A stretch of DNA of 64,000 nucleotides from an uncultured Gammaproteobacteria bacterium (GTDB lineage Bacteria; Patescibacteriota; Patescibacteriia; UBA1558; GWA2-36-10). The notes beneath the pieces were generated by a model, which was not told the DNA's origin, made no database searches, and saw only the letters and a list, made by a program, of their open reading frames with translations. Below, piece after piece: positions 1,759-47,009 of the stretch. Every line of letters begins with the position of its first letter. Within the stretch, counting starts at the first letter, position 1. Both the position numbers and the translations under genes were made by a program. The DNA lies in assembly GCA_964638415.1 (NCBI GenBank), contig CAZWYP010000001.1:148650-212649 (forward strand), given 5' to 3'.

Positions 1759-2340
1759 ATGAAGCCTAAACTTTTATTGCACGCTTGTTGTGCGCCGTGT
1801 TCAATTTATGTCTTGAAGAAATTGTCAGCCGATTGGCAGGTGACGATTTTTTTCTATGATCCCAATATTCATCCAAAAGAAGAATATGACAAGCGCCGTG
1901 ATGAATTGAAAAAGTATGCAGAGAAGATAGGTATTAATTTTGAGGAAGGCGAGTATGATGTGGATGTCTGGCTGGAAAAAACCAAAGGATTGGAATTAGA
2001 GCCGGAGCGGGGCCGTCGCTGTATAATCTGTTTTGATATCCGCCTGTCCAAAACTGCTATTAAAGCCAAGCAGGAAAATTATGATGCTTTTGCCACGGTA
2101 ATGTCCATTAGTCCGCATAAGGATTACCAGGCTTTAAGCCGGGTTGGTAATCGCTTGGCTCATAAATTCAATATTCTATTCTTAGACGGTAATTGGAAGA
2201 AGCAGGGTGGTTTTATCCAGGCTTTAGCCCTGTCTAAAGCCGAAGGTTTTTACCGCCAGGATTACTGCGGCTGCATTTATTCACAGGCGGCTAGAGAAAA
2301 GATAAAATCAGCCAAACAGCATGAACATCAAACTGTTTAA
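1759..2340 (+). CDS. queH: Epoxyqueuosine reductase QueH (DUF208)
   Basis: N-terminal LLHACCAPCS Cys motif plus downstream CxxC...C; ~190 aa; sits next to queA. Confidence 0.8.
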   Translation: MKPKLLLHACCAPCSIYVLKKLSADWQVTIFFYDPNIHPKEEYDKRRDELKKYAEKIGINFEEGEYDVDVWLEKTKGLELEPERGRRCIICFDIRLSKTAIKAKQENYDAFATVMSISPHKDYQALSRVGNRLAHKFNILFLDGNWKKQGGFIQALALSKAEGFYRQDYCGCIYSQAAREKIKSAKQHEHQTV

Positions 2341-3349
2341 TTACCATCTTCCCCAGGAGCTAATCGCTCAGGCTCAAGTTAAACCGCGGGATCACTCGCG
2401 GCTTTTGGTTTTAGATAAAAGCAGCAAGAAATTAAAGCATCTGCATTTTTATGATTTACCCAAGCTGTTAACTGGAAATGATGTTTTAGTCTTAAACCAG
2501 ACTAAGGTATTTCCGGCGCGTTTAATCGGCAAGAAGATTACTGGCGGTAAGGCAGAAATTTTCTTAATGGCTAGAATAAATAAAGATAATTGGCAGGCTC
2601 TGATTGGCGGCAGGCATTTGCAAGTTGGTGACAGTATTTTTTTGCCAAAAAAATTACAGGCTAGATTAATTAAAAAGCTGGATGATAAATCCTGGCAAGT
2701 GCAATTTAACATCGCTGGCCGCCAGTTAGATAGAATAATCGAGCAGGTTGGACAGACACCGCTCCCGCCGTATATTAAAACTGAAGACAATAAAAAAGTC
2801 AGGCAGGATTACCAGACAGTTTTTGCGGCTATTAAAGGTTCGGTAGCCGCTCCCACGGCTGGTCTGCATTTTACTCCTAAGCTATTGCAGGCATTAAAGA
2901 AGAAAGGAGTGCAGATTTTTAAAATAACTTTGCATGTTGGTTGGGGTACGTTTGCACCGGTGCAAGTCCAGCAGATTGAGCAGCATAAATTGCATCAGGA
3001 GTGGGTGGAGATAGACAGGGCTACCGTTAAAAGCCTGAATAAACTAAAACAGCAGGGCAGGAATATTATTGCAGTGGGCACCACTACTTGTCGGGCTTTA
3101 GAAGCTTTCAGTAACCAGCGGGGAAAATTATCTGCTGGTAAGAAATTTATTAATATTTATATTTATCCGGGATACAAGTTTAAATTTATTGACGAGCTTA
3201 TTACTAATTTCCACTTGCCCCAAAGCTCGCTGTTGTTTTTAGTCTCAGCTTTGGCCGGACGGAAATTAATGATGGATACTTACTTGGAAGCAGTTAAGAA
3301 AAAATATCGTTTTTACTCTTTTGGCGATGCGATGTTTATTAGGAAATAA
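2321..3349 (+). CDS. queA: S-adenosylmethionine:tRNA ribosyltransferase-isomerase QueA
   Basis: N-terminus MNIKLFNYHLPQELIAQ...RDHSRLLVL matches the QueA family; 342 aa; overlaps queH by 20 nt. Confidence 0.88.
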   Translation: MNIKLFNYHLPQELIAQAQVKPRDHSRLLVLDKSSKKLKHLHFYDLPKLLTGNDVLVLNQTKVFPARLIGKKITGGKAEIFLMARINKDNWQALIGGRHLQVGDSIFLPKKLQARLIKKLDDKSWQVQFNIAGRQLDRIIEQVGQTPLPPYIKTEDNKKVRQDYQTVFAAIKGSVAAPTAGLHFTPKLLQALKKKGVQIFKITLHVGWGTFAPVQVQQIEQHKLHQEWVEIDRATVKSLNKLKQQGRNIIAVGTTTCRALEAFSNQRGKLSAGKKFINIYIYPGYKFKFIDELITNFHLPQSSLLFLVSALAGRKLMMDTYLEAVKKKYRFYSFGDAMFIRK

Positions 3350-3362
3350 TATTTTAAACAAA

Positions 3363-3400
3363 TGAAAAAGGGATTACAGCCCTTCTTTTGCAATCCCTTT
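3363..3400 (+). terminator. Intrinsic terminator after queA (9-bp inverted repeat AAAGGGATT...AATCCCTTT with a U-tract)
   Basis: Inverted repeat and T-run read directly from the sequence. Confidence 0.5.
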
Positions 3401-3599
3401 ATGTGTGAACTTCGTGTTCGTTTTTCTATATTCAATTGTATGTTTTTCTTTAGCTTAAGTTGCCAACTATATAAAATCTAATTTGTAGTACTCCTCAGAG
3501 TACGCTTTAGTTATGCCAACTGGCTTTAGAAATGTATGTAATGTACTATCACTAAAGGTAGTATAGCATACTTTTTAGCGTTTGTCAACTTTTTAACTG

Positions 3600-5045: not shown

Positions 5046-5082
5046 TTGAAAAAAAGAACCCTGTCACATTGTGACAGGGTTT
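5046..5082. terminator. Palindromic bidirectional intrinsic terminator AAAAAAAGAACCCTGTCACATTGTGACAGGGTTTT (copy 1)
   Basis: Perfect 12-bp arms flanked by an A-tract and a T-tract; identical to copy 2 at 6906-6940. Confidence 0.7.
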
Positions 5083-6905: not shown

Positions 6906-6940
6906 AAAAAGAACCCTGTCACATTGTGACAGGGTTTTAT
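6906..6940. terminator. Palindromic bidirectional intrinsic terminator (copy 2), serving convergent genes
   Basis: Same 35-nt sequence as 5046-5082. Confidence 0.7.
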
Positions 6941-13246: not shown

Positions 13247-13344
13247 ATTGTCAGGGCTGTTTTCTGTAAAAGGAAAGCGGCCCTTTTTGTTTAGTTTGAC
13301 AATTTCTACTTTAGTTATATATTTAAAGTATAAGGTATAATATT

Positions 13345-13701: not shown

Positions 13702-15744
13702 TTGCTTATGCGCCAGATAGATTTTGCCAAGGAATTAAATGAAGAGCAATTAAAAGTGGTGACTGCTTCGGCAGGGCCACATTTAGTTTTAGCCGGAGCC
13801 GGCTCGGGCAAGACCAGAACCTTGGTTTACCGAGTAGCTTGGCTAATTAAGCAGTCAGTTAAGCCGGATAAAATTCTTTTGCTGACTTTTACCAATAAGG
13901 CGGCCAATGAGATGATGAGCAGAGTAAAAAGCCTATTGGGATTATCTCTTAATGACAGTTTGGCTGTCTGGGGAGGTACTTTTCATTCCATTGCCAATCG
14001 TTTGTTGCGGTATTATGGCGAAGCGATTAGCTTAAAGAATAATTTTATCATCGCGGATGAAGAGGACAGTAAGTCTTTGTTAAAAAAAGTAATTCAAGAG
14101 ATTTTTGGCAGTCTAGACAGCAAGCGCCACCCTTCAACTAATATTGTCAAAGAAGTAATCAGCTATGCGGCCAATGCTAGGATTAAATTAGCTGACAGCT
14201 TGGAAAAGAAATTTCCGGAGTGGTTACCTTTAGTTGGTTACTTTGAACAGATTGGGCAGGAATACAAGAAAAGAAAGCAAGCTAATAATATTTTGGATTT
14301 TGATGATCTGTTAATCTATTGGCTGCAACTGGTCAAGCACCCGGTAGTAGGAGAAAAGCTGAAGAATAAATGGCAGCATATTCTAGTTGACGAATACCAG
14401 GATACTAATAGTCTGCAGGCGGAAATAATCTACCATTTGGTCAATAAGGAGCAGAATCTTTTGGTGGTGGGTGATGATGCGCAGAGCATTTATTCCTTCC
14501 GGGCAGCGGATATCCAGAACATTCTAGATTTTCCTAAAAAGTTCAAGCAAGCCAGCATCCATAAATTGGAGACTAATTACCGCTCCAGTCCCGAGATTTT
14601 AGCTTTGGCTAATTTAATCATTGCCGCTAATGCCGAACAATTTCCCAAGAGCCTCAAAGCTGTAAATTCCAGTTTAGTTAAACCAGAGCTTTTGGCATTA
14701 CAGACTAATTTGCATGAAGCGAAGTGGATTGTTGATCGCATTATTGCTTTGATGAATGAAGGCGTGCCGGCCGAGGAAATTGCCGTATTGTTTCGAGCGG
14801 CTCACCATAGCCAAATGCTGGAAATGGAATTAAATAAGCGGGGGATTAATTACCAGATGCGGGGCGGTTTGCGCTTTTTTGAGCGGGCGCATATTAAGGA
14901 TGTAATTGCCTGGCTGAAGATTTTAGTTAATCATCAAGAGGAAATTTCCTGGTCTAGGATTTTAAATCTTTACCAGGGCATTGGACCAGCTACCGCCACT
15001 AAGATTATTTTATCGTTGAGGAATTTAAAAAGATTGTCGGACTTGCCAAAGTTATCTATTGAGTTAAGCGCTAAAGCCAGAAGTAGCTGGCAAAAGATTT
15101 TAAACACCATTGCCAATTTAGCCAGTCAGTCAGAGGGTAATCCGGCAGAGATTATTCGCCTGGCTAGCCGGGAATATGACGAATACTTGCTGGAGCAATA
15201 TCCAGATTACCGCCAGCGCCAGGATGATTTGGAGCAGTTAGCAGCGTTTGCTGCTAATTACTCTAAGCTGGAAGATTTTTTGGCAGAAGTAAGCTTGCAG
15301 GAGAATTTTAATTTGCAGAATAAGGATAATTCTGCCGCTATTGTGTTGAGTACCATCCATCAGGCGAAGGGCTTGGAATGGCAGGCGGTATTTTTGATGA
15401 ATTTAACCAGCCAGTCTCTGCCTCATCCGCTGTCGGTGTCAGAGAATAATATCGCGGAAGAGCGCCGCTTGTTTTACGTGGCAGTCACCCGCGCTAAGCG
15501 CCAGCTGTATTTAACTTACCCCTTAAGCAGCTTTAATTACCGCGGTTACCAGAGCCTGCAGCCTTCAGAATTTATTACCGAGCTTAATATCGGATTATTG
15601 TCGCTTAATCCTTTAGCGCAAGGAACAGTAGATAGTTTTTCTGCTGACCAGCAGTATGAGCAGGATGACAGCGCTGGAGATTTTTGGGACGAGGATAATG
15701 ATACCAAGGCTAAGAGTTTTCTGCCCGACATTGATGAGTGGTAG
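13702..15744 (+). CDS. uvrD: ATP-dependent DNA helicase UvrD/PcrA family (true start probably ATG 13708)
   Basis: Motif I AGAGSGKT, motif II VDEYQDTN, Q-motif, C-terminal 2B/2A motifs; 680 aa. Confidence 0.88.
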   Translation: MLMRQIDFAKELNEEQLKVVTASAGPHLVLAGAGSGKTRTLVYRVAWLIKQSVKPDKILLLTFTNKAANEMMSRVKSLLGLSLNDSLAVWGGTFHSIANRLLRYYGEAISLKNNFIIADEEDSKSLLKKVIQEIFGSLDSKRHPSTNIVKEVISYAANARIKLADSLEKKFPEWLPLVGYFEQIGQEYKKRKQANNILDFDDLLIYWLQLVKHPVVGEKLKNKWQHILVDEYQDTNSLQAEIIYHLVNKEQNLLVVGDDAQSIYSFRAADIQNILDFPKKFKQASIHKLETNYRSSPEILALANLIIAANAEQFPKSLKAVNSSLVKPELLALQTNLHEAKWIVDRIIALMNEGVPAEEIAVLFRAAHHSQMLEMELNKRGINYQMRGGLRFFERAHIKDVIAWLKILVNHQEEISWSRILNLYQGIGPATATKIILSLRNLKRLSDLPKLSIELSAKARSSWQKILNTIANLASQSEGNPAEIIRLASREYDEYLLEQYPDYRQRQDDLEQLAAFAANYSKLEDFLAEVSLQENFNLQNKDNSAAIVLSTIHQAKGLEWQAVFLMNLTSQSLPHPLSVSENNIAEERRLFYVAVTRAKRQLYLTYPLSSFNYRGYQSLQPSEFITELNIGLLSLNPLAQGTVDSFSADQQYEQDDSAGDFWDEDNDTKAKSFLPDIDEW

Positions 15745-15748
15745 ATTG

Positions 15749-15757
15749 TGGTATAAT
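15749..15757 (+). promoter_or_regulatory. Extended -10 promoter TGGTATAAT for the exonuclease-WYL gene
   Basis: TGnTATAAT motif 20 nt upstream of ATG 15777. Confidence 0.5.
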
Positions 15758-15776
15758 ATATAAACGAATAATTTTT

Positions 15777-16562
15777 ATGGATAAGGATACCATAGTTCTA
15801 GATTTAGAAACCCAGAAGACTTTTGATGAAGTCGGCGGGCACCACAACTCCCATTTGTTGGGAGTGTCTTTAGTCGGAGTCTATTCTTACCAGCGGGATA
15901 AATACCGCGGCTTTAAGGAAGAAGAATTTCCAGAGTTATTGGAACTGCTAAAAAACACCGGATTAGTCATTGGCTTTAATAGCAAGTCTTTTGACTTCAC
16001 CGTTCTGCAGCCATACTTCAAGGATTTTGATTTAAGAACTATTCCCCATCTGGATATTCTGGAAGAAATAGTTTTTGCCTTGGGCCATCGCTTGAAATTG
16101 GAATCAGTAGCCCAGAGCACTTTAGGCTATGGCAAGTCTGGCTCTGGTTTGGATGCTATTATGTATTACCGTAATAAAGATTGGGATAACTTAATTAGAT
16201 ATTGCTTGGATGACGTTAAAGTTACTAAGGAAGTTTATGACTATGGCTTGCAGCACGGGCATATTTGGTATACTACCGGGGGCAACAAGGAAAAAATAAT
16301 TGCTAGGTGGTATAAGGTGGACCGGCCAACGGTCGGTAAAATTATTACTGATGCTTTGGCTTCTGGTCAGCAATTGGAAATAGATTATATGGATGATCAA
16401 GGGCAGGTGTCTAAGCGGAAAATAGACATTCAGGCGGTTAAGGGTAATAAGGTTAAGGCTTTCTGCCATTTGCGTGACGCTATCCGTATCTTTGATTTAG
16501 ACAGGATAAAATCTGCTAAAGTAGTTGGTCAAATGACCAGTTTCCAGAAAAGTTTACTATAA
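15777..16562 (+). CDS. DnaQ-like 3'-5' exonuclease fused to a C-terminal WYL domain
   Basis: Exo I VLDLETQ, Exo II GFNSKSFDF, Exo III YCLDDVKVTKEVY; C-terminus LEIDYMDDQGQVSKRKIDIQAV...RIFDLDRIKSAKV matches the WYL consensus. Confidence 0.7.
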   Translation: MDKDTIVLDLETQKTFDEVGGHHNSHLLGVSLVGVYSYQRDKYRGFKEEEFPELLELLKNTGLVIGFNSKSFDFTVLQPYFKDFDLRTIPHLDILEEIVFALGHRLKLESVAQSTLGYGKSGSGLDAIMYYRNKDWDNLIRYCLDDVKVTKEVYDYGLQHGHIWYTTGGNKEKIIARWYKVDRPTVGKIITDALASGQQLEIDYMDDQGQVSKRKIDIQAVKGNKVKAFCHLRDAIRIFDLDRIKSAKVVGQMTSFQKSLL

Positions 16563-16784
16563 AAAAGAGGCCTAGTTGATTAGACTAGGCCTCGAACGAG
16601 TCCCTGCCCGTCAGCTCAAGGAGAATTGAGTCGAGCAAAGACTATCATGAGTGGCCGCACCACCCAGGCATTTTCCCTTAGACAGGGAGAAAAAGGTGGT
16701 GTGCCGTTGAGGGCAAGTCCGGCACACCGGGCGCATGATTTACTCCTGGGGAGAAAAGGTAAACATACGCCATTGTACTAAATC
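16561..16784 (-). ncRNA. Candidate sRNA, ~220 nt, GC-rich and structured; identity unknown (6S-like size)
   Basis: Minus-strand promoter (TTGACA at 16814-16819, 17-nt spacer, TATATT at 16791-16796) and minus-strand intrinsic terminator (9-bp stem 16567-16593 plus a U6 run); no ORF of 60 aa or more on either strand; GC far above flanking sequence. Confidence 0.4.
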
Positions 16785-16825
16785 TTACCAAATATAATAT
16801 ATTTTTTGCTTTATGTCAATAGTAA

Positions 16826-16858
16826 AAGCCCAAGTTGGTTAACCTGGGCTTTTTTTGA
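16826..16858. terminator. Bidirectional intrinsic terminator AGCCCAAGTTGGTTAACCTGGGCT with TTTTTTT; ends folD operon transcripts (minus) and plus-strand read-through from the exonuclease-WYL gene
   Basis: Stem-loop flanked by an A-tract and a T-tract. Confidence 0.7.
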
Positions 16859-16979
16859 GGTCTGACTTTGTATCCCCATGAGGAGGATTGAAAAAAGTGG
16901 TGGCAAAGTTTGCGATCTCGGCGATGGTCCAGCGGGAGCTGGGAGAGTAGAATATTCAGAGAGCTAATTATTAATTTGA

Positions 16980-17816
16980 TTATAATATATTTTTTGCCAA
17001 TTGCACAGTGTTATAAAGCAGCATAGCTACGGTCATGGGACCGACGCCGCCCGGCACTGGGGTAATATGGGAAGCTTTGGGAAAGATAGCTGAATAGTCA
17101 GCGTCGCCAACCAAATACTTATTGTCAATTTTATTGGTGCCGACATCAATTAGAATAACCCCTTCTTTAACCATGTCTTCTTTAATGAAGAAAGCTTGGC
17201 CTACTGCGGTAATTAAAATATCTGCAGTCAGAGTTTTTTCTTTTATATTTTTTTGAGCAGGTTTAATGATTTCAGTTTTTATTTTTTTATCTTGCAGCAG
17301 CTTAGCTAGCGGTTCGTAAAATACTTCACTTTTAGCAATAATAACTGCTTGCTTGTTAGCTAAGTTCTCGCCAGTAGCTTCCAGCAATTTAATAATGCCT
17401 AAAGGCAAGCCGGGAATAAAGCTGCTTTGATTATTGAGTAATTTTTTAATGTTAGCCGGATGAAAACCGTCAACATCCTTATTTGGATCAATGGCCGAGA
17501 TTACTTTGTCCGTATCCAAATGCTTAGGCAGGGGAAGCTGAACTAGAATAGCGTCTATTTCTGGATCGTTATTTAAAAATTCTATAGTCTCTAAAACATC
17601 TTTGTTTTGGCAATTCTCAGCAATTAAATATTCATGGAAAGCAATGCCGATTTTTTCACAGGCCTTCTTTTTTAAGCCGACATAGGTCTGGGAAGCCGGA
17701 TCAGTACCGACTAAAATAACGGCTAAATTGGGAGTTAGCTTTTGTCTATATATTTCCTGTTGTAGTTCTATTTGGATTTGTTCGGCTAAAGCTTTGCCGT
17801 CAATTATTTCCGCCAT
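16980..17816 (-). CDS. folD: Bifunctional methylenetetrahydrofolate dehydrogenase/cyclohydrolase FolD
   Basis: N-terminus MAEIIDGKALAEQIQ..., substrate motif YVGLKKKA, VGxSxxVGxP-like NAD motif; 278 aa. Confidence 0.9.
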   Translation of the reverse strand: MAEIIDGKALAEQIQIELQQEIYRQKLTPNLAVILVGTDPASQTYVGLKKKACEKIGIAFHEYLIAENCQNKDVLETIEFLNNDPEIDAILVQLPLPKHLDTDKVISAIDPNKDVDGFHPANIKKLLNNQSSFIPGLPLGIIKLLEATGENLANKQAVIIAKSEVFYEPLAKLLQDKKIKTEIIKPAQKNIKEKTLTADILITAVGQAFFIKEDMVKEGVILIDVGTNKIDNKYLVGDADYSAIFPKASHITPVPGGVGPMTVAMLLYNTVQLAKNIL

Positions 17817-17820
17817 AGTT

Positions 17821-19080
17821 TTATAATTCTGGATAAAGGGGGAATCGCTGCATTAAGTCTATAATCTTTTTCTTGCTATCTGCTGTTGCTTGCTTGTTTT
17901 TTAGGGTAGCAATAATTACTTCAGCAATAATTTCCATGTCCACTTCTTTTAGTCCGCGGGTAGTTAAAGCAGGTGTGCCTAGGCGGATGCCGGATGGATC
18001 CATTGGTTTGCGCTGGTCAAAAGGTATCATGTTTTTATTGGTATAAACATAAACTTCATCCAGTAATTTTTCCGCCTCTTTGCCGGATAATCCTAAAGGA
18101 GTGACGTCTAGCAGCAGCAGATGATTGTCAGTTCCTTGGCTAATAATCCTAATGCCTGCTGCTTTGAATTTATTTTCCAAAACTTTAGCATTAGCTAAAA
18201 CTTGTTTTTGGTAATCAACAAATTCAGGCTGTAAAGCTTCCTGGAAAGCAATAGCTTTAGCGGCGATAATATGCTCTAATGGTCCGCCTTGCATGCCGGG
18301 AAAAACCGCAGAATCTATTTTCTGGGCTAAGGTTTTTTCTCCGGGATTAATGCGATCTTCAATTTTGGAAAGGATCATCGCTCCCCGCGGTCCACGTAGA
18401 GTTTTGTGAGTGGTGGTTGTTACCACGTCAGCATAGGGAAGAGGATCCGGGTGTAATTTGGCGGCAACTAGGCCGGCAATATGCGCCATGTCTACCATTA
18501 GGTAAGCGCCGACTTCATCAGCGATTTTTTTGAAAGCGGCAAAGTCTATGGCGCGGGAATAAGCGGAAGCACCGGCTAAGATTATTTTCGGCTTATGCAT
18601 CATGGCCTGGTTGCGCACTTCATCAAGGTCAATCATCTCAGTTTTTTGGTCAACACCATAGCTGACAAAATGGTAGAATTTGCCGGAGAAATTGACTGGA
18701 TGGCCGTGAGTCAAATGCCCGCCATGAGCTAGAGAAAAACCCAAAATAGTATCTCCCAAATTACAGAGAGCAAAATATGCTTCCATATTAGCTTGAGAGC
18801 CGGCATGAGGCTGGACATTGGCGTGTTCAGCGCCGAATAATTTTTTGGCCCGTTCTATAGCTAAGCTTTCTACCTGGTCAATAAACTCATTACCGCCATA
18901 GTATCTTTTGTTAGGATAGCCTTCAGCATATTTATTGGTTAAGACTGAGCCGGCGGCGGCTAAGACTGCCGGAGAGACAAAGTTTTCCGAAGCAATCATT
19001 TCCGCGCCTTGACGCTGGCGCTCTAATTCCTGACGGATAATTGCATTAATTTGCGGATCTGTTTTTTCTAATATTTTCAT
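17821..19080 (-). CDS. glyA: Serine hydroxymethyltransferase GlyA
   Basis: [16 protein letters not shown]-binding [13 protein letters not shown] motifs; 419 aa. Confidence 0.92.
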
Positions 19081-19084
19081 TGGT

Positions 19085-20698
19085 TTATAATTCTTTATTC
19101 ATATAAGTTCCTTCCAGAGAATAGCCTAAGTTTTTGTAATATTCCCTGACGCCGATGCCGGAAATAACTGCTACCTTATTTAATCCTTTGGCTTTGGTTA
19201 TTTTTTCCGCTTCGGCCATTAGCTTGCGGCCAAAACCCATGTGCTGGGTTTGGTTAGCGCTTACTTCTTCATCACTGCTTTCGCCTTTGACTGGTATCAT
19301 TTTACCATAGACATGCAGTTCGCGCACTAAAGAAGCGCCAACTAATTCCGGCAGGATATTATTATTAGGATCGGCATTGAATCTTAATCTTAAGAAGGCA
19401 TAAATTTTTGTCCGATCTTTGCTTTCAAAGCTTAAGAAATATTCTTCTCCTCCGGAAGCCGGATAAGTTCTGGTTACTAATTCCACTTGGCTAGGATCAA
19501 CACTTTCACCTTTAACTTCCCGACAGCGGATGCATTGGCAGGCTAAATTTCTCCTCTTCATTTCTTCCTGCAGAAATTGCCTCAAGTTAGTTATCTTATT
19601 GCCGGCAATAATTGACTCTTCCGGAATATCGCGGATTAGGCGGTTGATGCGCATGTAGGGTGGTACGATTTTTTTAATTTCCAAAAGCAGTTCCATTAAT
19701 TCTTTTGGCTGATAGGGTTTGTATTGTCCGGACAAGAACCACTGATGAAGTTCAGCGTATTCATTGACGACACAAGGATAGATTTTTAATTGATCAGGCT
19801 GCAGATCCGGAGAAGTAAAGACATATTTAAACATGCTCAGGTCTTTGGCGGGAGTAGAGCCTGGCAAGTCCGGCATATAGTGATGGTCAACTTTAAAGCC
19901 GGCCTCTTTTAATTTTCTGGTAGCCCGGATGGAATCTTCAATGTGCTCGCCGCGCTTGATGTAATCCAAGATTTGGTTATCTGTATGCTGGACTCCCAAT
20001 TGGACGCGGGTGCAGCCTAATTCCCGCAAGCGTTTGATTTCAAAATCGCTGACAAAGTCCGGTCGGGTTTCTAAGGTTAAGCCGATAATCCGGTAGCGGG
20101 TAGTCTCATTAATATCCTGTTCTTCTTTTAAGCTTAATTTTTCCCGCAGTTCTTTTTCCCCGTAAGTATTGGCGGCGTAAAATAAATCACGGATAAATTC
20201 TCGTTGGTATTTGTCAGGATAAACAGACCAGGTGCCTCCCAAAACCAGTATTTCTATCTTATCTACTGCATGGCCGTTGTTTTCCAGCGCCATGATACGC
20301 ATTCTTACCTGACGTTCAGGATCGAATAAATTGCGTTTAGCACGTTGAGCTGCTGGCTCATTGGATAAATAGCTTTTAGGCATGTCCGGTTCAGTCGGAC
20401 AGTACACGCATTTGCCCGGACAGACAAAGGGCTTGGTTAAGACAGTAATAACAGAAACGCCGGATAAAGTCCGCACTGCTCTTTTAGTTAAGAGCCGCAG
20501 AAATTTTTTATCTTCCGGCAATTTACCCTCTTTAACCAATTGACTGTAGATGGAAATAAGAGTAGCCTTAGAATCAGGAGCAAGCTGGCGGCGGCTGAAA
20601 GTTTTGCGCAAAGCCGTGACAAAATCAGCATCGGTAGGATATTCCTGCGCTGCCAGTTCGCTAACTATTTCTCTTAATTGTTTTTCCTGTTTTAACAT
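19085..20698 (-). CDS. elp3: Elp3-like tRNA uridine(34) acetyltransferase (radical SAM plus GNAT)
   Basis: CPGKCVYCP radical-SAM cysteine triad; C-terminal GNAT with [14 protein letters not shown]...[11 protein letters not shown]; 537 aa. Confidence 0.8.
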
Positions 20699-46918: not shown

Positions 46919-47009
46919 TGGCGGAGAGTGAGGGATTTGAACCCTCGAGGGCTTTGACACCCTACTCGCTTTCCAAGCGAGCGCACTAGACCACTATGCG
47001 AACTCTCCA
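46919..47009 (-). tRNA. tRNA-Ser (anticodon GGA), long variable arm, encoded CCA
   Basis: Reverse complement folds as a cloverleaf: acceptor GGAGAGU/ACUCUCC, anticodon stem CUCGC/GCGAG, loop UUGGAAA, T-loop GGGTTCAAATCCC; promoter TTGACT, 16-17 nt, TATACT upstream (47027-47054); terminator CTTCTGCACCAGAAG with a T-run downstream (46887-46912). Confidence 0.9.

Follow-up and report, generated by a model that had tools for sequence, protein, structure and literature searches.

Genes are tightly packed in the 64,000-nt stretch of DNA that we analysed, hereafter the window, which belongs to a genome of the Patescibacteria (Candidate Phyla Radiation, CPR) closely allied to Candidatus Komeilibacteria. 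The only large gap of the window holding neither a gene nor a tRNA is one of 417 nt (16563-16979) between two converging operons. In this gap lies a candidate minus-strand gene for a stand-alone, structured small RNA (sRNA) of about 220 nt, and we consider it somewhat probable that the block encodes such an RNA, specific to its lineage and with cis-antisense action as its likeliest mode. Gaps of similar size elsewhere in the window contain a secG-like gene, tatA-like small genes or a tRNA-Ser. An independent minus-strand sRNA of about 220 nt had been proposed here in the initial annotation of the window, and the proposal is supported by a promoter, an orphan terminator, an island of high GC content, the z-score of the predicted fold and the lack of a coding signal.

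The candidate gene is headed by a sigma-70-type promoter that matches at 11 of 12 positions, with the -35 box TTGACA at 16819-16814 and, after a 17-nt spacer, the -10 box TATATT at 16796-16791 on the minus strand, exactly where the initial annotation had read it. Sites of this quality number six on the two strands of the window (128 kb in all), against 3.0 ± 1.6 in shuffled sequence. Since two of the others, at 13296 and 39498, stand directly upstream of genes, the TTGACA-17-TATATT promoter type appears to be in use in this genome. A minus-strand transcript from the promoter would start near 16784, on a purine 6-8 nt past the -10 box (about 16783-16785), and would end in the U-tract at 16561-16566, giving a predicted RNA of about 220-225 nt (16561-16785).

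The 3' end of this predicted transcript would be set by an intrinsic terminator (16593-16561, minus strand), which consists of a 10-bp stem (16593-16567), a 7-nt loop and U6 and has a folding energy of -17.8 kcal/mol (z = -6.1). The terminator had been recognized as strong and as ending in U6, and only its stem, earlier given as 9 bp, needed correction. In a terminator scan of the window, most other hits mark where a same-strand gene ends, while upstream of this one on the minus strand there are only the promoter and the terminator of folD (16849-16828), and no protein gene; it is the sole orphan terminator of the window in this sense. Because the hairpin, read on the plus strand, is preceded by an A-tract and followed by GAACGAG, with no U-tract, it is predicted to be a terminator for the minus strand only.

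Enclosed by these signals is a block of sharply elevated GC content, as had been noted before: the GC fraction of 16588-16737 is 0.587, against 0.404 for the window as a whole. This stretch ranks third by GC among the 150-nt blocks of the window, and both richer blocks lie inside long open reading frames (ORFs), which leaves it the most GC-rich non-coding stretch. In AT-rich genomes, GC-rich islands reportedly point to genes for structured RNAs, an approach associated with Klein, Misulovin and Eddy (2002), and a sharp peak of 0.59 against 0.40, restricted to a gene-free gap, is the classic hallmark of such a gene. This hallmark normally goes with conserved RNAs, whereas the present candidate has no detectable relatives.

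The predicted minus-strand RNA folds with a free energy of -91.0 kcal/mol (z = -5.97) into a chain of local hairpins, comprising H1, H2, a weak linker, H5 and the terminator. Hairpin H1 (16730-16771; about 16 pairs; -16.3 kcal/mol, z = -5.4) is followed by H2 (16698-16728; GACUUGCCCUCAA; -18.2 kcal/mol, z = -4.1), a perfect 9-bp GC-rich stem with a 13-nt loop. H5 (16599-16642; -20.1 kcal/mol, z = -4.1) carries the apical loop UUCUCC (16620-16625) and is well formed on the minus strand only, owing to three G-U pairs. The linker between H2 and H5 (16646-16697) contains the small hairpins H3 and H4 and is not significantly structured by itself (z = -1.5); a hairpin of CACCACC with GGGUGGUG, singled out in the initial annotation, could form there as an alternative but is absent from both the minimum free energy (MFE) and the centroid folds. 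The plus strand of the same block folds less well (-83.8 kcal/mol, z = -4.09). Eight G-U pairs occur in the minus-strand fold, three of them in H5, and the minus strand is therefore favoured.

On the opposite strand, the candidate gene is approached by an operon that contains a uvrD-like helicase gene (13702-15744, plus strand) and, next to it, a gene for an RNase H-like exonuclease with a WYL domain (15738-16562, plus strand; Pfam PF13482 and PF13280). The first T-tract terminator past the exonuclease-WYL gene is a bidirectional terminator-like hairpin at 16826-16858, which has a T7 tail on the plus strand; read on the minus strand, with 9 pairs followed by UUUUAC, it serves as the terminator of the folD-glyA-radical SAM operon. 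This hairpin, which had been read earlier as a plus-strand T-tract terminator, does exist, and it is energetically better on the minus strand (-17.9 kcal/mol) than on the plus strand (-13.5 kcal/mol), where the stem contains an A-C mismatch. Because no U-tract terminator for the uvrD/exonuclease-WYL operon occurs before 16826-16858, its mRNA would read through the candidate gene in the opposite direction as far as that hairpin. Such read-through would make the 3' untranslated region (UTR) of the operon fully complementary to the sRNA over about 220 nt, and on this reading of the sequence the sRNA would be antisense to that 3' UTR, as put forward earlier.

The 3' UTR of the plus-strand operon is the one partner that the sequence itself appears to offer. 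We propose that the sRNA, with its C/U-rich loops displayed on H1, H2, H5 and two minor hairpins, would pair with the 3' end of the operon transcript in cis, that the convergent RNA polymerases may interfere with each other, and that this would determine how the helicase/exonuclease mRNA is processed at its 3' end and how stable it is. As a second possibility, the exposed loops may serve in trans, by pairing with mRNAs or by binding a protein. A precedent for the cis arrangement is the Escherichia coli sRNA GadY, a cis-encoded antisense RNA that lies opposite gadX and overlaps the 3' UTR of this convergent gene. Like GadY, the candidate is a promoter-to-terminator unit that converges on protein-coding sequence, here an operon, and it would be complementary to the 3' untranslated end of that operon and not to coding sequence. 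It differs from GadY in that the two have no sequence relation, in that the overlap is deduced here from a missing U-tract terminator, and in being longer, far more structured and GC-richer than simple antisense action requires. The predicted element would be an orphan sRNA of a familiar bacterial kind, probably working as a cis-antisense RNA.

To place the block in an evolutionary context, we compared it with 14 related loci, namely 11 Patescibacteria loci and three Logan contigs of the closest relatives (80% amino acid identity), with labels such as Komeilibacteria, Nomurabacteria and Parcubacteria. The uvrD-WYL pair faces folD-glyA-radical SAM in the 11 Patescibacteria loci, and the content of the gap between WYL and folD differs from relative to relative. 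In L001, L004, L006, L007, L010 and L011 the gap measures 3-160 nt and holds a single bidirectional terminator; L002 (4800-4900) and L084 (1010-1130) carry GC-rich inverted-repeat elements that resemble small mobile repeats; L005 and L009 have a lipoprotein-like gene; and unrelated genes of 161, 190 and 273 amino acids occupy the gap in L083-L085. The WYL gene of the relatives ends at a normal bidirectional terminator of A-tract, hairpin and T-tract, with no comparable 3' UTR. No similarity was found between the block and the small genes that fill the relatives' gap, and the idea that it is a remnant of such genes was rejected. Nor does the window contain a second copy of the block, as might be seen for a repeat or a miniature inverted-repeat transposable element.

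Several observations weigh against a functional cis-antisense sRNA. The block has no homologue in the syntenic gap of the 14 loci by blastn, by nhmmer or by a covariance model (R1) built from the single sequence and its predicted structure. A metagenome scan for a pattern with both CU-rich motifs of the RNA returned 58 loci with nothing in common beyond the pattern, and three viral pattern scans gave noise or nothing. With no homologue in any search, there is no covariation and no sign of purifying selection, and the RNA would be lineage-specific on present data. The start regions of the 57 genes in the window include no convincing target in trans. A purely antisense function needs no GC-rich structured RNA. 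Finally, the gap is a hot spot of variable content and the block could be recently acquired DNA, and the promoter itself may be an accident of insertion, with its -10 box in a duplicated 17-mer and its -35 box between the two repeats.

The duplicated 17-mer is an exact direct repeat, TATAATATATTTTTTGC, whose copies lie 188 nt apart. One copy (16793-16809) is inside the sRNA promoter, where it covers 16793-16796 of the -10 box and the adjoining spacer, and the other (16981-16997) comprises the last codons and the stop of folD; the -35 box falls within the 171 nt between them. Related traces occur in two relatives. A 69-nt duplication of FolD C-terminal coding sequence, with 81% identity, lies directly downstream of the intact folD of L003 (4830-4898 and 4933-5001), and a similar folD 3'-end fragment stands at the contig end in L009 (5533-5592). 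Because the window repeat, the L003 duplication and the L009 fragment all involve this site, the comparison suggests that the folD 3' end is repeatedly subject to insertion or duplication. An event of this kind may have created the promoter as a hybrid, and the block may originally have been the 3' UTR of folD.

These features can also be read as the marks of a block that is non-functional or very young, a GC-rich insertion or duplication fragment at the folD 3' end in a hypervariable hot spot, with a fortuitous hybrid promoter and with 16567-16593 left over from an old bidirectional terminator. We regard this as unlikely, yet deserving of real weight. It would account for the failure of every homologue search, for a gap that is different in every relative, for the repeat that ties the promoter to the folD stop region and for the 69-nt folD duplication in L003, and the CU-rich cores of the block occur at chance frequency (see below). 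It would leave unexplained a fold of z = -6 with three independently significant hairpins, which is not expected of random or foreign DNA, and the exact placement of the block, flanked by an 11/12 promoter and, in matching orientation, a U6 terminator, which would be unlikely for such DNA. Moreover, the block does not appear to be a gene fragment, because its concatenated six-frame translation matches nothing among 5.8 billion proteins at E ≤ 10, and blastn against phages and plasmids gave nothing relevant.

A related scenario keeps a function for the block. In this scenario, which we think rather improbable, the RNA would be a new, lineage-restricted, structured RNA of the CPR; an insertion would have joined the -35 box to a folD-derived -10 box and so made the folD 3' UTR into an independent sRNA gene, and its partner would be something other than Shine-Dalgarno (SD) sequences, since the genome shows no SD use. 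If true, the origin of the promoter at the folD 3' end would make this an instance in which the de novo birth of an sRNA gene can be traced.

The function could also reside on the other strand. The block would then be a long structured 3' UTR of the uvrD/exonuclease-WYL operon, acting as a stabiliser against 3' exonucleases or as a site bound, for instance, by the WYL domain, and the minus-strand signals would be incidental. WYL domains are ligand- and nucleic-acid-binding modules, the plus-strand fold is itself significant (z = -4.09), and the operon has no U-tract terminator before 16826-16858. We give this possibility little credence: the minus strand folds better and H5 needs its G-U pairs, promoter and U6 terminator alike are oriented for minus-strand transcription, and no such UTR occurs in relatives that share the operon. 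The initial annotation had named a confident Rfam family on the plus strand, for example RNase P, as a result that would speak against the minus-strand sRNA, and no such family was found.

A role in trans, as the main activity of the RNA, appears about as doubtful. Here the exposed C/U-rich loops would pair with G-rich or ribosome-binding sequences of mRNAs, in the manner of sX13, the Betaproteobacteria toxic sRNA and RsaE/RoxS; the initial annotation had envisaged a form of this, in which two direct CU-rich motifs pair with SD sequences. Both motifs are present on the minus strand. The first, CCUUUUCUCCCC (16748-16759), lies in the apical loop of H1 with a mean unpaired probability of 0.83, and the second, CCUUUUUCUCCCUG (16683-16696), lies in the linker and is largely paired, its CUCC core having an unpaired probability of 0.27. 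C-rich motifs are likewise exposed in the loops of H2 (>0.87) and H5 (0.85). As in the sRNAs named above, the hairpin loops show UCUCC, CUCCCC and CCCUC and are followed by an intrinsic terminator, and the predicted unpaired probabilities of CUCC (loops of H1 and H5) and of CCCUC (loop of H2) are 0.83-0.95. The best sub-threshold Rfam resemblances are also to such sRNAs, with scores of 16.5 bits for Betaproteobacteria_toxic_sRNA (RF02278) and 14.5 bits for sX13 (RF02232). These scores are far below the gathering threshold of 50 for each family and are carried mostly by the terminator. The likeness of the two CU-rich motifs to each other is only marginal (self-alignment score of 20 against 14.8 ± 2.2, matched in 3 of 100 shuffles, p ~0.03), and the CUCC/CCUC cores number 4 against 2.6 expected, a count reached in 132 of 500 shuffles and thus at chance level.

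The expected targets are also scarce. We examined SD sequences and pairing with start regions for the 57 genes of the window. About five of the 57 have an SD-like core (GGAG, GAGG or AGGA) before the first start, which equals the 9% background, and the sequences upstream of gene starts are typically AT-rich. The genome shows no SD use above background and therefore offers no visible targets for an anti-SD motif. Duplexes of four exposed motifs with start regions are weaker than those with random windows (means of about -5.1 and -6.2, respectively), and the best start-region duplex, at -12.6, falls short of the first percentile of the controls, -15.9, which no start region reaches. The window is thus almost devoid of SD or G-rich start targets of the sort expected for sX13-like sRNAs, and pairing with SD sequences, as suggested earlier, is not borne out.

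We consider it very improbable that the transcript encodes a small protein, whether purely as an mRNA or as a dual-function RNA. The block had been described as lacking ORFs; two exist, a Cys-rich 41-amino acid ATG ORF on the minus strand (16736-16611; MRPVCRTCPQRHTTFFSLSKGKCLGGAATHDSLCSTQFSLS) and a 51-amino acid TTG ORF on the plus strand, and both fail coding tests. The encoded 41-residue peptide would be the product, and AGGAG stands 6 nt before its ATG. The codon log-odds of this ORF is -0.12, below that of any 41-codon window from 29 real genes of the window (mean 0.35, minimum 0.009), and its GC content at third codon positions (GC3) is atypical, at 0.61 against 0.40. The predicted fold hides both AGGAG and the ATG within H1, and SD sequences are in any case not used in this genome. 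A full HMMER search with the peptide against 1.84 billion representatives gave three weak matches, the best with E = 8e-7, all of them spurious ORFs over tRNA-like or short interspersed nuclear element (SINE)-like repeats, and the DNA of the best match has just a 9-mer in common with the locus. By exact look-up, none of the eight small ORFs of the gap, the 41-amino acid ORF included, is a called protein in a 15-billion collection. A protein-coding function of the block is rejected.

One protein encountered in these searches, P0121 (locus L024, 5001-5423, ENA contig ERZ25069191), is a spurious ORF over two tandem repeat copies about 210 nt apart. The repeat resembles the 3' half of a tRNA (GTGGGTTCGAGTCCCACCCAGGGCA followed by a T-run) and is probably eukaryotic. 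The case illustrates that short peptide queries can match translated RNA repeats.

A highly diverged housekeeping RNA, such as 6S RNA, signal recognition particle (SRP) RNA, RNase P or transfer-messenger RNA (tmRNA), missed by Rfam models in the CPR, is scarcely credible: although 6S RNA is hard to detect by sequence, and the length, strong promoter and GC richness would fit, Rfam gives no such match on the 231 nt of the candidate at E ≤ 10, ARAGORN finds no tmRNA, the rod fold is disfavoured and the single-sequence covariance model finds nothing in related loci. The comparison with 6S RNA (RF00013 and related families) had been prompted by size, and the candidate does share with it a length of about 190-220 nt, its own strong promoter and a GC content above that of the genome. 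It differs in being a chain of local hairpins where 6S RNA is a rod with a central bubble; when the halves were forced to pair in a 6S-like rod, the best energy was -49.6 kcal/mol, 23 kcal/mol worse than the -73.0 kcal/mol of the multi-hairpin MFE fold, and even relaxed Rfam searches gave no 6S match.

More broadly, an Rfam search of the whole window at gathering thresholds returned only the tRNA-Ser at 46922-47008, and relaxed searches (E ≤ 10) on 701 nt and 231 nt returned only terminator-driven or sub-threshold matches. ARAGORN found neither a tRNA nor a tmRNA in the gap, and 6S, SRP, RNase P, tmRNA and tRNA were rejected for want of a covariance-model or ARAGORN match. A riboswitch or attenuation leader was likewise rejected: past the terminator lies the antisense strand of the conserved WYL gene and no regulated gene, and a 92-amino acid antisense ORF found there looks like junk.

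Beyond the candidate sRNA gene, the remainder of the gap (16860-16979, minus strand) is the 3' UTR of folD or a spacer. It had been flagged earlier as a second GC-rich stretch with hairpins, a description that does not hold up as a structured element, as 16860-16982 has z-scores of only -1.4 (minus strand) and -0.7 (plus strand), neither of them significant. The stretch has no homologue and no similarity to the small genes that occupy the relatives' gap. A strong SD-like sequence, GAGGAGGA (16880-16887, plus strand), precedes ORFs of 20-29 amino acids, MKKVVAKFAISAMVQRELGE and MRRIEKSGGKVCDLGDGPAGAGRVEYSES, in this spacer (16878-16967), neither of which is on record as a called protein; since the genome makes no use of SD sequences, this one is probably meaningless.

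The converging operon on the minus strand comprises a radical SAM gene (19085-20698), glyA (17821-19080) and, as its final gene, folD (16980-17816; Pfam PF00763 and PF02882), whose product has a C-terminus of normal length compared with relatives. On the plus-strand side, the exonuclease-WYL protein is 100% identical to a single database protein, P0001, and its next relative is only 80% identical. Exact look-ups with this protein, with the FolD of the window and with P0001 itself returned no contig. The longest ORF for this protein opens at GTG 15738 and overlaps uvrD. Because the identical P0001 has 261 amino acids, the true start is probably near 15777, 13 codons downstream.

Two further features of the window concern terminators and promoters. 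An identical 25-nt terminator hairpin, AACCCTGTCACATTGTGACAGGGTT, stands behind two different genes (5057-5081 and 6911-6937). A second promoter-to-terminator unit without a convincing ORF occurs on the minus strand at 3362-3588, between a gene at 2321-3349 and a gene for a 189-amino acid protein. It consists of TTGACA (3588-3583), a 17-nt spacer, TATACT (3565-3560), about 190 AT-rich nucleotides and a hairpin with a U-tract near 3395-3365, with a fold z-score of -2.9 and no Rfam match. This unit may be another sRNA candidate.

The proposed cis-antisense sRNA is at present a single-genome prediction, a good lead rather than a discovery, and our literature search returned no paper describing sRNAs of Patescibacteria, a group in which such regulators appear to be almost undescribed. 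Regulators are few in the very small genomes of CPR organisms, for which no genetic tools exist, and the genome studied here initiates translation without SD sequences. If transcribed, the RNA would be among the few concrete candidates for an sRNA gene in the CPR. It would then offer a defined system in which to study how a conserved helicase/exonuclease-WYL operon is controlled by antisense RNA and how sRNA genes originate at variable intergenic hot spots.

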